From a virus: a DNA stretch of 6,576 nt. The translations under genes were made by a program, and so were the position numbers. The notes beneath the pieces are model-generated. The model was not told the DNA's origin and did not search any database. It worked only from the letters and a program-made list of their open reading frames with translations. The DNA is taken from positions 1 through 6,576 of the IMG/VR virus record IMGVR_UViG_3300027532_000102; one strand, written 5' to 3'. The stretch's first letter is position 1. Every line of letters begins with the position of its first letter. Positions 5,441-6,576 of this stretch are shown here, one piece after another.

Positions 5441-5701
5441 TCATTCCGCGGCTGGCGGCACCAGACTGTCATCCAGTATCTTCTTCACTTCCATCCCGCG
5501 AATGTGCCGGTTCAGTCTGGCGATTTCCTCGGCCATGTTCTCCGCCTGGAGCTCGAGTTCCTGCACTCTCTTACGTAAGCGACTTGTCTCTTGGTTGTCC
5601 AGGTCGGCTTGGTTCTTCATCGTTCCCCACTTCTGCCGATATCGCCTTTGCGCCTCGCGGTTCTGCTGCCTTCGCTTCTCTACCATGGATGCAGTTCTCA
5701 T
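5441..5701 (-). CDS. bZIP-like basic-region plus leucine-zipper DNA-binding protein candidate, 86 aa
   Basis: GAGGG (5715-5711) is followed by 9 nt and then ATG 5701. Residues 9-24, KRRQQNREAQRRYRQK, fit the bZIP basic-region signature (N, x2, AQ, x2, Y, R, x, K, with N-x7-R spacing). Heptad d positions are L42, L49, M56, L63 and M70, with V46, A53, I60 and I67 at a positions. Confidence 0.7.
   Translation of the reverse strand: MRTASMVEKRRQQNREAQRRYRQKWGTMKNQADLDNQETSRLRKRVQELELQAENMAEEIARLNRHIRGMEVKKILDDSLVPPAAE
5569..5580. promoter_or_regulatory. ACGT-core palindromic motif copy 5: TCTTACGTAAGC
   Basis: The 10-mer TTACGTAAGC (5571-5580) is identical to 5431-5440, exactly 140 nt away. It lies inside the bZIP-like gene (codons S-R-L-R-K) and supplies the TAA stop of the overlapping ORF 5571-5852. 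Confidence 0.45.
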
Positions 5702-5852
5702 CGGTGCATTCCCTCACTGTCCACATGACCCACCGACCGGCGGCGTACTGGTGAGCCGCCTGCCTCGTCCCGAAGGGCCTATCCAGCCGCCGCAGTGTCC
5801 TCACCGGCCTGCGCGGCTCGTTGTTCCCTCCCCATATGTGCCAGTGCTTCAA
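5571..5852 (-). CDS. Hypothetical protein, 93 aa from TTG 5852; its 3' part overlaps the bZIP-like gene by 131 nt
   Basis: GGAG (5864-5861) is followed by 8 nt and then TTG 5852-5850, which overlaps the upstream stop TGA 5851-5849 (TTGA). It is the only open frame across 5702-5848 on this strand. The Trp/Arg-rich sequence KHWHIWGGNNEPRRPVRTLRRLDRPFGTRQAAHQYAAGRWVMWTVRECTDENCIHGR has no recognisable family. The true end is uncertain. Confidence 0.4.
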   Translation of the reverse strand: MKHWHIWGGNNEPRRPVRTLRRLDRPFGTRQAAHQYAAGRWVMWTVRECTDENCIHGREAKAAEPRGAKAISAEVGNDEEPSRPGQPRDKSLT

Positions 5853-5989
5853 TGTAGGTTCTCCGTTGTCGGCCACCTTCTGGCTACGTAGCGCAATGCG
5901 CTTTCGAATTCCGGCGAGTCGATGCCGTGGTGTTTGAGCATCGTCTTTAGGAAACCCCACAGGGACAGTCTTGTCTCTACGTCGTTCAC
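5849..5989 (-). CDS. Hypothetical small protein, 46 aa (possible helix-turn-helix, weak)
   Basis: GAGGAG (6003-5998) is followed by 8 nt and then GTG 5989-5987, which overlaps the upstream stop TGA 5988-5986 (GTGA). The product is MNDVETRLSLWGFLKTMLKHHGIDSPEFESALRYVARRWPTTENLH. The longer ORF-track version (to 6148) overlaps the upstream gene and lacks an SD. Confidence 0.5.
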   Translation of the reverse strand: MNDVETRLSLWGFLKTMLKHHGIDSPEFESALRYVARRWPTTENLH

Positions 5990-6168
5990 TCGTTGCACTC
6001 CTCTATGGTATGCATGAACTCCTTGAGCATGTACGACGTGTTGTATGCCTCGCGCGTTGCTTGGTCCTTCTCGTTGGTCGAGAACGACTGAAACGCCACC
6101 ATGTTCCAAGCGTGCGTGCTCAACGCTAGCTGCCTCAACTGCTGCCACTGCTCATTGGTCATGTTCAC
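5986..6168 (-). CDS. Hypothetical small helical protein, 60 aa; first gene of the leftward cassette
   Basis: GGGAGA (6181-6176) is followed by 7 nt and then GTG 6168-6166. ATG 6162 is an alternative start. The product is MNMTNEQWQQLRQLALSTHAWNMVAFQSFSTNEKDQATREAYNTSYMLKEFMHTIEECNE, with no family recognised. Confidence 0.6.
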   Translation of the reverse strand: MNMTNEQWQQLRQLALSTHAWNMVAFQSFSTNEKDQATREAYNTSYMLKEFMHTIEECNE

Positions 6169-6204
6169 TTGCCAATCTCCCTACGGGCGAATCCCGTATT
6201 GACA

Positions 6205-6233
6205 ATAGTAAAGGATTACATAAGCATAGTAAA
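6205..6233 (-). promoter_or_regulatory. Candidate sigma70-type promoter for the leftward cassette
   Basis: On the minus strand, TTTACT (6233-6228) is followed by a 17-nt spacer and TACTAT (6210-6205). It lies in the only AT-rich island of the genome. The predicted leader contains the hairpin TACGGG-cgaat-CCCGTA (6182-6198) just before the SD. Confidence 0.4.
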
Positions 6234-6427
6234 CCTAGTTCCACGAGAAACTGTGGCACAAAAACCACAACCCCCCTTGCCAAACCGCCTTTGAGCGTGT
6301 CCACATCCTCTCCCCGTCTCAAGCGAAGCGTCATTGACTGTGCATCCATCGAAACCAAGCGGCAGCGCGCGCGCGCCCTCCGGGCGCTAAACTCGTGCGA
6401 AGCACACCATCTGGTGCTTTCCCTTCC

Positions 6428-6457
6428 TTGACACCACAAAATCTAGTGTGCTACACC
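6428..6457 (+). promoter_or_regulatory. Candidate rightward promoter for the lipoprotein-rep operon
   Basis: A perfect -35 TTGACA (6428-6433) is followed by an 18-nt spacer containing an extended -10 TG (6449-6450), then the weak -10 TACACC (6452-6457, equal to 3-8). It spans the arbitrary linearisation point. Confidence 0.35.
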
Positions 6458-6576
6458 CGATACTCACCCGAAGGGCGGAGACCGCTTGCGGGCTCCGTTC
6501 ATGAGTAGCGGGACCAAACCTTTCTTCTCCACCGGAGACCTATGTCTATGCTCACCAAGGCAACACTTCTCAAATA
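6450..6576. repeat. Terminal direct repeat, copy 2 (assembly overlap; includes a duplicated 5' fragment of the lipoprotein CDS from 6542)
   Basis: Identical to 1-127. ATG 6542 corresponds to ATG 93, so this is not a separate gene. Confidence 0.95.

Follow-up and report, generated by a model that had tools for sequence, protein, structure and literature searches.

bZIP transcription factors are regarded as having been invented by eukaryotes, and the spacing between their basic region and their zipper is strictly conserved; Pu and Struhl, in 1991, and Agre and colleagues, in 1989, reportedly found that non-heptad insertions abolish the function of GCN4. Bacteria-infecting microviruses, for their part, are seen as minimal lytic machines, coded on a single strand and lacking any dedicated transcription factor, all of their genes normally being encoded by one strand, and we know of no small regulator of such a kind in the Microviridae. 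Viruses of eukaryotes that encode bZIP-type regulators include EBV (Zta), KSHV (K-bZIP), MDV (Meq) and HTLV-1, whose HBZ is encoded antisense.

Among cellular proteins, fungal bZIPs of the Yap/Pap1 type (Pap1, structure 1GD2; Yap4 and Yap6; HapX, 7AW7) prefer the half-site TTAC, arranged either as YRE-A, TTACGTAA, or as YRE-O, TTACTAA, and YRE-A is bound by Pap1 (1GD2), Yap4 and Yap6 (PMC3111461, PMC6545440). For the bacterial proteins RptR and TodS and for ORF8 of the Stenotrophomonas phage Ps15, splayed helices on short palindromes have been proposed or a bZIP domain has been annotated (PMC12255303, PMC9025141); RptR is without a long zipper according to its authors (PMC12255303), and the annotation of Ps15 ORF8 is unvalidated (PMC9025141). 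The statement in a first-pass annotation of the present locus that no phage bZIPs are known was therefore too strong, the literature containing unvalidated annotations of bZIP domains as well as bacterial regulators described as 'bZIP-like' (PMC9025141, PMC12255303, PMC7017128). None of these proteins has been reported to combine a Yap-type signature with enrichment of the corresponding site in the genome that encodes it.

Here we describe an 86-residue protein from a phiX-like microvirus in which both halves of such a system are found together, a single 6.4-kb genome holding the DNA-reading residues of the Yap/Pap1 type and seven matching sites, some of them kept against codon bias.

Results

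Carrier genome and antisense gene

The window, meaning the whole stretch of 6,576 nt that was analysed (IMGVR_UViG_3300027532_000102), has a 127-nt terminal repeat and closes into a 6449-nt circle. Profile searches matched its genes to the Pfam families Phage_F, gpD and REP_ORF2-G2P, and with an F-type capsid, an HUH Rep containing a conserved nested ORF, a gpD external scaffold and a small circular genome, the carrier is a circular phiX-like (gpD- and F-encoding) microvirus from the sponge Aplysina aerophoba, its capsid being 22–24% identical to those of phiX-like phages. All copies that we found come from the Aplysina aerophoba holobiont: 14 contigs with the gene represent a single genome at 100% identity, with one contig showing four mismatches, outside the ORF. 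Because these contigs are one identical clone, they provide no evolutionary conservation or covariation to back the gene or the sites.

The 86-residue translation quoted, with no strand given, in the first-pass annotation matches the window exactly on the minus strand, read from 5701 to 5441 (Table 1), and the plus-strand reading of the same interval is interrupted by a stop. When codon usage was trained on the genes of the phage itself, the frame of the ORF ranked first of the six; its GC content by codon position is 0.61/0.38/0.69, and the gene was called by three independent pipelines, in the ENA, JGI and Logan assemblies. In the flanking gap at 5702–5851 no frame is coding-like by codon usage, the plus strand over the ORF region holds no credible gene, and the GC and AT skews are inverted across 5400–6200. 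The ORF is a real gene, the last of a small antisense module. The first gene of this module has no known domain and no Pfam or PHROG match, no domain was found in the possible second gene, and none of the other ORFs of the genome carries a DNA-binding domain recognisable by Pfam or PHROG searches. The 86-residue protein contains neither cysteine nor a signal peptide or other secretion signal.

Table 1 Features of the antisense locus and candidate sites across the genome, in window coordinates
Feature	Position	Strand	Basis
ORF of the bZIP-like protein, 86 aa, stop codon 5441-5443	5441..5701	-	translation confirmed; gene calls
Shine-Dalgarno-like GAGGG, 9 nt before the ATG	5711..5715	-	read from sequence; putative function
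Basic region, residues 9-24 KRRQQNREAQRRYRQK, with Yap/Pap1-type N-x2-AQ-x2-Y-R signature	5630..5677	-	profile score and mutation controls
Non-canonical spacer, residues 25-41 WGTMKNQADLDNQETSR, 10 residues beyond canonical bZIP	5579..5629	-	deletion scan
Leucine-zipper-like heptads, residues 42-70	5492..5578	-	read from sequence; bZIP_1 score
First gene of antisense module, 58-60 aa, Shine-Dalgarno AGGGAG at 6182-6177	5986..6168	-	gene calls; GC3 0.84; frame with best codon score
Possible second gene of module, 46 aa, GTG start, 4-nt overlap with preceding stop	5849..5989	-	called in two assemblies; weak codon signal
Putative overlapping promoter core	6199..6233		weak matches read by eye
9-bp GC hairpin in convergent intergenic region, adjoining the 5431 site, with T6 upstream on plus strand	5407..5428		folding
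Perfect TTACGTAA site (gcTTACGTAAca on minus strand), 2 nt past the ORF stop, 140 bp from the 5571 site	5431..5438		site scan
Perfect TTACGTAA site (gcTTACGTAAga on minus strand), codons L42-R43-K44, L42 being a rare TTA	5571..5578		site scan
TTACATAA site (gcTTATGTAAtc on minus strand), divergent control region, between promoter-like hexamers	6216..6223		site scan
gcTTACGTCAgc site inside Rep gene, TTA being an in-frame rare Leu codon	824..831		site scan
gcTTACGTCAgc site, capsid codons 22-24, conserved LRQ encoded using rare TTA	2293..2300		site scan
gcTTACGCAAgt site inside ORF 3555-4565	3688..3695		site scan
gcTGACGTAAtc site inside ORF 3555-4565	3971..3978		site scan

Relatives of the protein were sought at several levels. 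A word-indexed search of 5.8 billion clusters and a phmmer search of 1.84 billion protein representatives each matched the protein to itself only, peptide-pattern scans of IMG/VR with the protein and with an alignment of the protein and HapX gave nothing, and tblastn against 50,697 phage records at E<=10 detected no similar sequence. A cluster look-up returned no name and no useful accession. As far as sequence similarity reaches in these collections, the protein is a true orphan. Related microviruses have small antisense ORFs at the same position, in which no Pfam domain was detected, and 20 loci of capsid relatives (40–45% identity) were without a homologue of the ORF and without TTACGTAA; scanning genome contigs with an alignment of the capsid brought up no related prophages.

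A bZIP-like basic region

Residues 9–24 follow the classical basic-region pattern that had been proposed for them, with K9, R10, R11, N14, A17, Q18, Y21, R22 and K24 in place and the N-x7-R spacing intact. The proposed likeness to the Yap/Pap1 subtype is also real, A17-Q18 and Y21 fitting N-x2-A-Q-x2-[FY]-R and the longer pattern R-x2-Q-N-R-x-A-Q-R-x-[F/Y]-R being shared with proteins of this type (KRKAQNRAAQRAFRER in HapX, KRRQQNREAQRRYRQK here). Against the Pfam family bZIP_1 (PF00170), the native protein scored 23.9 bits (E=4.5e-5), below the gathering cut-off of 27.6 bits, with the next family at E=0.018, and residues 1–30 by themselves gave 24.5 bits (E=2.9e-5) with bZIP_1 and 17.9 bits with bZIP_2. 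No bZIP match was obtained from the reversed protein, from a protein with a shuffled basic region, from a five-point signature mutant or from fully shuffled sequences. The bZIP_1 match is specific and beyond chance; measured against the profiles, the original proposal stands in that the signal depends on the signature residues, and falls short in that the native score lies under the gathering threshold.

We scanned DNA for back-translations of QNRxAQRx[FY]R, allowing CGN codons only for arginine. In IMG/VR, the matches listed comprised only a family of tailed-phage HNH endonucleases with the identical decamer and a few junk frames, and in bacterial genomes all of the matches listed, at least 120, were out-of-frame or unrelated. 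Since the decamer QNREAQRRYR thus stands at the N-terminus of a non-bZIP protein, whose N-terminal extension scores only 10 bits against bZIP_1, the signature alone is no proof; a word search with this endonuclease N-terminus found one near-identical protein. PHROG families of coiled coils match the 86-residue protein at scores similar to that of bZIP_1. The match to phrog_18076 ('hol-like chemotaxis', E=1.1e-4) was rejected because it survives shuffling or mutation of the basic region, showing that its signal comes from the coiled coil.

The best sequence matches in the PDB were bZIPs, namely HapX and ATF4, the latter sharing an identical RYRQK. Pap1 (1GD2) reached only E=3.5, even with the spacer removed, and we take all of the Pap1 contact positions in 1GD2 to be matched by the phage protein. 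AlphaFold2 predicted the monomer as one continuous helix over residues 3–79 (pLDDT 90.6), including residues 21–40 and the stretch that forms the spacer (pLDDT 97), single-sequence predictions of this type being prone to long helices, and Foldseek found no match to the single-helix model in the PDB. The predicted structure, one long helix with the heptad zipper towards its C-terminus, would be a further likeness to Yap/Pap1 proteins. Unlike them, the phage protein has a longer spacer, Y in place of F, no Asn at the zipper a positions and no regulatory domains within its 86 residues; it is encoded by a bacteriophage and has no detectable homology to them beyond the motif. Neither homology that would place it among Yap proteins nor a cysteine-rich redox domain was found, phmmer returning only the protein itself and its 86 residues containing no Cys. 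The label 'eukaryote-type' in the first-pass annotation holds for the resemblance of the signature and is not supported as a claim of descent, there being no homologues in the collections searched and the codon usage being matched to the phage.

A zipper displaced by ten residues

The heptad zipper that had been noted is present, with L42, L49, M56, L63 and M70 at d, every seven residues, and V46, A53, I60 and I67 at a, giving five heptads with Leu-type d and hydrophobic a positions where at least four would be looked for. On its own, the zipper scores 15.6 bits against bZIP_1. Repulsive g-e' pairs appear to be absent (R45-E50, H66-E71), which, together with beta-branched a positions and d positions occupied by Leu/Met, would favour a parallel dimer.

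The first zipper Leu stands at N+28 instead of the canonical N+18, and N14+18 falls on A32, in the a series, so that the native protein departs from the N+18 Leu rule of GCN4, CREB and ATF4. We removed residues from the connector in silico and rescored the protein against bZIP_1, obtaining 23.9 bits with none removed, 33.6 with 7, 35.1 with 9, 41.0 with 10, 36.9 with 11, 26.0 with 14 and 30.4 with 17. Removal of exactly ten residues is a sharp optimum (41.0 bits, E=2e-10), with a secondary peak at 17, and the family threshold is exceeded only with 6–12 or 17 residues removed. With the spacer removed, the protein aligns without gaps to the PDB sequences of GCN4 and CREB across both basic region and zipper. 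The sharpness of this optimum bears out the earlier caveat about register, the zipper being offset from the canonical position by exactly ten residues, and describes a bZIP with a 10-residue (7+3) spacer. As 10 equals 3 modulo 7, the DNA-contact face and the dimer seam would be out of phase by ~50 degrees. The core positions of the spacer (M28, A32, D35, T39) are only weakly hydrophobic, and one of its residues is a glycine (G26); the spacer may form a discontinuous, stammer-like connector or one kinked at G26, or it may give the protein arms longer and more flexible than those of eukaryotic bZIPs.

YRE-A-type palindromes in the phage genome

In the 6449-nt circle, TTACGTAA is the most enriched of all 256 palindromes of 8 bp, with two exact and five one-mismatch sites where about 0.7–1 are expected (0.72 in the shuffle test). 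A count of seven was reached in 0 of 200 shuffles, and in 1 of 3000 shuffles of synonymous codons. The sites share their flanks, as GC-TKAC-GTMA-GC, and GCTTACGT occurs four times against an expectation of 0.09. All three GCTGAC and five of the six GCTTAC hexamers of the genome lie within the sites, whose 14 half-sites comprise nine TTAC, three TGAC, one TTGC and one TTAT. TTA accounts for only 3 of 140 Leu codons in plus-strand genes, and rare TTA codons occur at the sites. The sites are enriched, with selection acting at the DNA level. The flanks differ from those of Yap and Pap1 sites, being GC in the phage and A/G as reported for the latter, while the core is the same, YRE-A being both the target predicted from the basic region and the top palindrome here.

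The two perfect sites flank the zipper-coding part, or 3' half, of the ORF, and correspond to the TTACGTAAGC that had been noted earlier, which is present twice, at 5431–5440 and 5571–5580. The hairpin next to the first of them folds with -29.1 kcal/mol (z = -3.3), and no canonical intrinsic terminator was recognised in it on either strand.

No 40-nt stretch of the genome is richer in AT than the one that contains the 6216 site (6198–6237, 72% AT). On the minus strand, the promoter-like hexamers TTTACT (6233–6228) and TACTAT (6210–6205) are separated by a 17-nt spacer, and on the plus strand a perfect TTGACA stands at 6199–6204, with direct repeats of ATAGTAAA at 6205 and 6226. A scan for consensus sigma-70 promoters found none above threshold anywhere in the window, and the assignment of overlapping promoters to this core is putative. 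The position of the 6216 dyad inside this promoter-like spacer of a divergent region suggests autoregulation and control of a switch.

Discussion

We consider it probable that the 86-residue protein is a genuine regulator that binds DNA, and one of a type undescribed in such phages. With moderate confidence, we read it as a homodimeric, bZIP-like regulator of sites in its own genome, its dimerisation, its binding of the sites and the direction of regulation being what we infer from the combination of motif, zipper and palindromes. Weighing against this reading are the native score under the Pfam threshold, the ten surplus residues in a spacing where non-heptad insertions reportedly cost GCN4 its function, the glycine and weak core of the spacer, the failure to find any homologue in the collections searched together with the clonality of the contigs, the negative consensus scan for promoters and the occurrence of the decamer in an HNH endonuclease. 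The C-terminal heptads (L42 to M70) would zip two helices together, and the N-terminal basic helices, through R10, Q13, N14, A17, Q18, Y21 and R22, would read the TTAC half-sites of dyads resembling GC-TTAC-GTAA-GC, so that recognition would be of a short palindrome with abutting half-sites and an ACGT core. The target of the dimer would be the double-stranded replicative form, over which the seven dyads are spread. Binding at 6216 could provide autoregulation and switch expression between the antisense module and the plus-strand genes; at the perfect sites 5431 and 5571, where convergent transcription would meet, the dimer might serve as a roadblock or insulator, and at the four sites in Rep, the capsid gene and ORF 3555–4565 it might act as a roadblock to plus-strand expression.

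By functional analogy, such a protein would resemble the Cro/CI (HTH) and Arc/Mnt (RHH) repressors of phages, as a small dimeric regulator whose gene neighbours a divergent control region and whose dyad operator would sit within the core of the promoter; it would differ from them in being a predicted single helix with a coiled coil, and in having putative operators genome-wide, also inside genes. It would likewise resemble Zta, K-bZIP, Meq and HBZ as a virus-encoded protein predicted to bind sites in the viral genome, and HBZ also in being antisense-encoded, although these proteins use the nuclear machinery of their hosts and the present one belongs to an ssDNA phage of bacteria. If binding is true, bZIP-type DNA reading works, and is selected, in a bacterial setting; the locus would offer a natural test of the basic region-zipper spacing, which is supposed to be inviolable and is lengthened here by ten residues, and some phiX-like phages would be seen to operate a regulatory module from the antisense strand, perhaps to maintain a carrier or persistent state within sponge symbionts.

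Where such a protein came from is a separate matter. The same dimeric mechanism on TTACGTAA-type dyads could have arisen convergently in phages or bacteria, for instance through fusion of a basic helix from a phage with a coiled coil, and we regard this origin as a serious, if tentative, possibility. It fits the lack of any homologue among 1.84 billion representatives, the fully phage-like codon usage and the non-canonical spacer. Against it, the domain with its spacer removed reaches 41 bits (E=2e-10) and is gapless to GCN4 and CREB, and a protein that presumably matches all Pap1 contact positions of 1GD2 and has the same cognate site would have had much to reach independently. Phages do possess QNREAQRRYR in an unrelated setting, in the N-terminal extension of the HNH endonuclease, where it earns 10 bits against bZIP_1, yet the bacterial scan for the signature held, among the matches listed, only out-of-frame junk. 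bZIP-like regulators of bacterial origin have already been proposed in RptR and TodS (PMC12255303).

The converse origin, which we consider rather unlikely, is that a eukaryotic bZIP was captured by an ssDNA phage in the sponge holobiont, gained the 10-residue spacer and was domesticated together with YRE-A-like operators, some of them accommodated in coding sequence via rare codons. If this were true, no functional bZIP regulon would have been known before in a virus of bacteria, and the locus would also give the phiX-like microviruses their first dedicated transcription factor and their first module for antisense control.

Less probable again is that we are dealing with a generic coiled-coil protein, basic at its N-terminus, of structural, lysis-related or host-takeover function and without specific DNA binding; its likeness to bZIPs would then be accidental, and the dyads would have some other role or be bound by a factor of the host or by a different protein of the phage. 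The sub-threshold Pfam score, the zipper out of register, the comparable scores of PHROG coiled-coil families, with phrog_18076 surviving basic-region shuffling, and the occurrence of the signature decamer in a non-bZIP protein would all fit such a protein. The bZIP match, however, rests on the signature residues and not on the coiled coil, the subtype of the basic region predicts the very palindrome that is most enriched, two perfect sites are physically tied to the ORF, and no other ORF has a recognisable DNA-binding domain.

It is very improbable that the ORF is an unexpressed, chance antisense frame. At 61% GC, the window does contain many long spurious ORFs, microviruses normally code on one strand, and the identity of all copies removes comparative support; but codon usage favours this frame over the other five, beside a flank (5702–5851) with no coding-like frame, the GC and AT skews invert across 5400–6200, a Shine-Dalgarno sequence precedes the ORF, no credible plus-strand gene competes with it, related microviruses have small antisense ORFs at the same position, and a chance frame would not be expected to reach a profile score of 41 bits once a single indel is made.

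A eukaryote-like protein aimed at the sponge or at other eukaryotic cells, in the manner of the ankyrin proteins of sponge-symbiont phages, is the least credible reading of all, for although the genome comes from the Aplysina aerophoba holobiont and sponge symbionts and their phages are, as Jahn and colleagues reportedly described in 2019, known for eukaryote-like proteins, the protein has no signal peptide or secretion signal, and the enrichment of cognate sites in the phage's own genome, with selection at the DNA level, points to an internal target. For the regulator proposed here, the candidate target is represented by the probe sequence GCTTACGTAAGC and, for two chains of the protein, by the duplex 5'-CGAGCTTACGTAAGCTCG-3'.

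The antisense ORF encodes a bZIP-like basic region and zipper

The first-pass annotation had described at 5441–5701 an 86-aa protein with a eukaryote-type, Yap/Pap1-like bZIP basic region and a heptad zipper. The ORF lies on the minus strand (5701→5441), and its translation is exactly the sequence reported there. Read directly, the protein carries the signature K9 R10 R11 ... N14 R E A17 Q18 R R Y21 R22 Q K24 and heptads with L42, L49, M56, L63 and M70 at d and V46, A53, I60 and I67 at a. Its match to Pfam bZIP_1 is specific, about 400 times better than that to the next family, and at 23.9 bits (E=4.5e-5) falls under the 27.6-bit gathering score. Residues 1–30 alone score 24.5 bits against bZIP_1 and 17.9 bits against bZIP_2, and the zipper alone scores 15.6 bits against bZIP_1, equalled by other coiled-coil families. 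Pfam searches with the reversed protein, fully shuffled sequences, a shuffled basic region or a 5-point signature mutant gave no bZIP match. A PHROG match of similar strength to bZIP_1, phrog_18076, was dropped, its signal coming from the coiled coil. The best two PDB sequence matches are HapX and ATF4. AF2 run without an alignment predicts a single helix over residues 3–79 (pLDDT 90.6; 97 over the connector), a lone-helix model that Foldseek could not place.

Ten additional residues separate the basic region from the zipper

In canonical bZIPs, the first zipper leucine lies at N+18. A caution on register raised with the original reading was right: N+18 is A32, in the a-series, and the first zipper leucine lies at N+28. 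Deleting connector residues raised the bZIP_1 score from 23.9 bits to 25.4 (three deleted), 25.1 (4), 28.1 (6), 33.6 (7), 34.8 (8), 35.1 (9) and a maximum of 41.0 (10; E=2e-10), with lower scores beyond (36.9 for 11, 34.1 for 12, 26.0 for 14 and 30.4 for 17), so that by sequence the protein is a bZIP domain with exactly ten residues inserted. Without these residues, the best nine PDB matches are all bZIPs (HapX, ATF4, GCN4, CREB), each weak on its own (E 0.014–0.3), and the alignment to GCN4 is ungapped.

The excess of ten residues is 3 modulo 7; in a straight helix with an unbroken seam, this would turn the face that contacts DNA by ~50 degrees relative to the dimer interface. In classic spacing experiments with GCN4 and C/EBP, insertions were reportedly tolerated only as multiples of a heptad. 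In the connector, W25-G26-T-M28-K-N-Q-A32-D-L-D35-N-Q-E-T39-S-R, the core is weak and, as had been cautioned, one glycine is present; this segment could form a stammer-like discontinuity, a kink, or longer and more adaptable arms. Fixed spacing between basic region and zipper is a defining bZIP feature from which this protein departs, and we therefore do not class it as a canonical member. The original observation is confirmed and its interpretation stands in part: we conclude with moderate confidence that the protein works like a bZIP, and its spacing and gathering score set it apart from canonical members.

The ORF belongs to a minus-strand module of a circular microvirus genome

Codon-usage log-odds trained on five plus-strand genes place the ORF's own frame top of six, at 0.17 bits per codon versus 0.09 for Rep, and rate no frame of the 150-nt gap upstream as coding-like. 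GC by codon position is 0.61/0.38/0.69, AT and GC skews flip sign over 5400–6200, and GAGGG lies 9 nt 5' of the ATG. Independent gene-calling pipelines report the ORF together with a 58–60-aa gene as a minus-strand module, to which some add a 46-aa gene. All 14 gene-bearing contigs are one identical clone, and the ORF is therefore without comparative evidence. In related microviruses the equivalent position, from the last structural gene to Rep, is occupied by small antisense ORFs unrelated to these, so that antisense accessory modules appear typical of the clade. These small ORFs gave no Pfam domain. Several group into small families (e.g. MKLLxEDIRKAR...), and those of L023 and L021 contain basic helices (KKQAAYRARNKARQ; WKKRKQTAHRE). 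One relative has an antisense ORF of 185 aa that the window lacks.

Since nucleotides 1–127 recur exactly at 6450–6576, the genome is complete and circular, with 6449 nt and 61% GC. It occurs at 100% identity in ENA, JGI and Logan assemblies, and the SRA source runs are metagenomes of the marine sponge Aplysina aerophoba. Capsid identity is only 22–24% to phiX-like phages and 'pequenoviruses', and 40–45% to ~20 uncultivated microvirus contigs of ~5 kb each. A gpD gene and a divergent capsid in a high-GC microvirus suggest that it represents a deep lineage of phiX-like phages distinct from the enterobacterial Bullavirinae. The out-of-frame ORF within Rep is laid out like phiX174 gene B, the internal scaffolding gene nested in gene A; related microviruses keep a counterpart of ~122 aa with the same C-terminal motif, DAxERxxW..D.F..G..P.R..R.L. 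The first plus-strand ORF has a hydrophobic lipoprotein-like leader (LLAAGIMLPMTSC) and a coiled-coil-like tail, gave nothing above threshold against Pfam, and could encode a lysis/spanin-like protein or an exclusion lipoprotein.

Features of the genome, of related uncultivated microvirus loci (L011–L029; small antisense ORFs of 55–75 aa, one or two per relative) and of tailed-phage contigs (L032, L033, L036–L038)
Feature	Position	Strand	Remarks
92-aa ORF, first on strand	93–371	+	good codon usage
HUH Rep	368–1678	+	Pfam REP_ORF2-G2P
Conserved ORF nested in Rep	1189–1581	+	130 aa, out of frame
gpD-type external scaffolding protein	1698–2165	+	Pfam gpD, E=1.8e-7
F-type capsid	2230–3555	+	
ORF 3555–4565	3555–4565	+	
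271-aa protein	4562–5377	+	
9-bp GC hairpin	5407–5428		GGGGGCTCC-AATC-GGAGCCCCC; -29 kcal/mol, z = -3.3
bZIP-like regulator	5701→5441	−	86 aa
Possible antisense gene	5989→5849	−	46 aa
First antisense gene	6168→5986	−	58–60 aa
Small antisense ORFs	L011 3379–3794	−	
Small antisense ORFs	L017 3564–3746	−	
Small antisense ORFs	L018 3807–3974	−	
Small antisense ORFs	L019 3065–3232	−	
Small antisense ORFs	L021 3874–4237	−	
Small antisense ORFs	L022 4460–4645	−	
Small antisense ORFs	L023 1015–1197	−	
Small antisense ORFs	L028 1660–1854	−	
Small antisense ORFs	L029 279–473	−	
Longer antisense ORF	L012 657–1214	−	185 aa
HNH_3 endonuclease	L032 2303–2935		N-terminal extension opening MTTAEQNREAQRRYRERNAEAVKAKARAQAAKYR; also L033, L036, L037, L038

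Convergence and eukaryotic descent

Homologue searches with the 86-aa protein found none and the ORF's codon usage is the phage's own, so these two results speak neither for nor against descent from a eukaryotic bZIP. Pointing towards convergence, the identical decamer QNREAQRRYR stands at the N-terminus of a tailed-phage HNH endonuclease (10 bits against bZIP_1), encoded on contigs of ~0.6 GC, and may represent a basic, DNA-binding helix motif native to phages. Also on this side, regulators described as 'bZIP-like' exist in bacteria, and phage proteins carry unvalidated bZIP annotations (PMC9025141, PMC12255303, PMC7017128). Towards descent point the 41 bits of the whole domain once the ten residues are removed, the absence of gaps when it is aligned to GCN4 and CREB, and its source in a sponge holobiont, a setting in which eukaryote-like proteins are known in symbionts and their phages. 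Across 185,579 genomes of bacteria and archaea, a signature scan with arginine codons limited to CGN gave junk frames only among the first 120 matches listed.

A Yap/Pap1-type palindrome is enriched and under selection

Proteins of the Yap/Pap1 subtype (N-x2-A-Q-x2-F/Y-R) recognise TTAC half-sites, and TTACGTAA is the YRE-A element and the DNA of the Pap1 structure 1GD2 (PMC3111461, PMC6545440). The genome holds two exact copies of TTACGTAA (5431, 5571) and five with one mismatch (824, 2293, 3688, 3971, 6216), seven in all against ~0.72 expected, a count reached in none of 200 dinucleotide shuffles; the element ranks first among all 256 8-bp palindromes in this genome. All seven sites are flanked by GC on one or both sides, and their consensus is GC-T[T/G]AC-GT[A/C]A-GC; GCTTACGT occurs four times against 0.09 expected, and five of the genome's six GCTTAC and all three GCTGAC fall within sites. 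Synonymous-codon shuffling in the genes, preserving proteins and codon usage, attained the observed site count in one of 3000 genomes. The rare leucine codon TTA makes up 3 of 140 leucine codons in plus-strand genes, two of the three being the Rep and capsid sites, and the regulator's own L42 is TTA. Enrichment, synonymous shuffling and rare-codon use together place these dyads under DNA-level selection. In relatives without the gene, TTACGTAA was not found. The strongest new point is that the protein's subtype agrees with the genome's most enriched palindrome. All of the evidence is computational and comes from a single clone. The protein would be a bZIP variant in an unexpected host, a hypothesis that is exceptionally well defined and could be tested at little cost.

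Site positions suggest operator and roadblock roles

Site 6216 lies within the genome's most AT-rich 40 nt (6198–6237, 72% AT), in the divergent intergenic region. It occupies the 17-nt spacer between minus-strand TTTACT (6233–6228) and TACTAT (6210–6205), ~30 nt 5' of the AGGGAG Shine-Dalgarno and GTG start of the first antisense gene, and a perfect plus-strand TTGACA (6199–6204) overlaps this hexamer core. Such a position would be a classic operator placement on a putative promoter-like core. The hexamers are weak and a consensus scan found no promoter in the whole window, so a promoter here is one that we infer.

The perfect sites 5431 and 5571, 140 bp apart, flank the stretch of the regulator gene that codes for the zipper. 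Site 5431 is 2 nt beyond that gene's stop codon, in the intergenic region where plus- and minus-strand transcription converge, and adjoins the strong GC hairpin. This hairpin has T6 on its 5' side on the plus strand, hence A6 on its 3' side on the minus strand, and is therefore no canonical intrinsic terminator on either; it could instead stabilise an RNA end or act as a single-stranded DNA element, e.g. a complementary-strand origin. The remaining four sites are intragenic, in Rep, the capsid gene and ORF 3555–4565.

We propose that the protein would act as a homodimeric bZIP-like regulator and the putative binder of these dyads on the replicative form. Through 6216 it would most likely regulate its own expression and the divergent promoter core; at the 5431/5571 pair and at the intragenic sites it would most likely form a roadblock or insulator. 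Binding would modulate plus-strand (replication and structural) expression, from presumptive promoters and in a presumptive direction, and might form part of a carrier or persistent state in symbionts of the sponge.

Successive sites are separated by 1469 nt (824–2293), 1395 nt (2293–3688) and 1460 nt (3971–5431), a roughly regular quarter-genome spacing that may be coincidental or may help to organise the replicative form. Within the 46-aa ORF, GCTACGTAGC at 5883–5892 is a perfect 10-bp palindrome equal to the site consensus minus one base pair per half, and the only three TACGTA hexamers in the genome (5432, 5572, 5885) are inside the antisense module. The 10-mer CCCGAAGGGC recurs exactly at 5769–5778 and 6467–6476, both non-coding stretches of the antisense/control region; its minus-strand reading, GCCCTTCGGG, is a small TTCG-loop hairpin.
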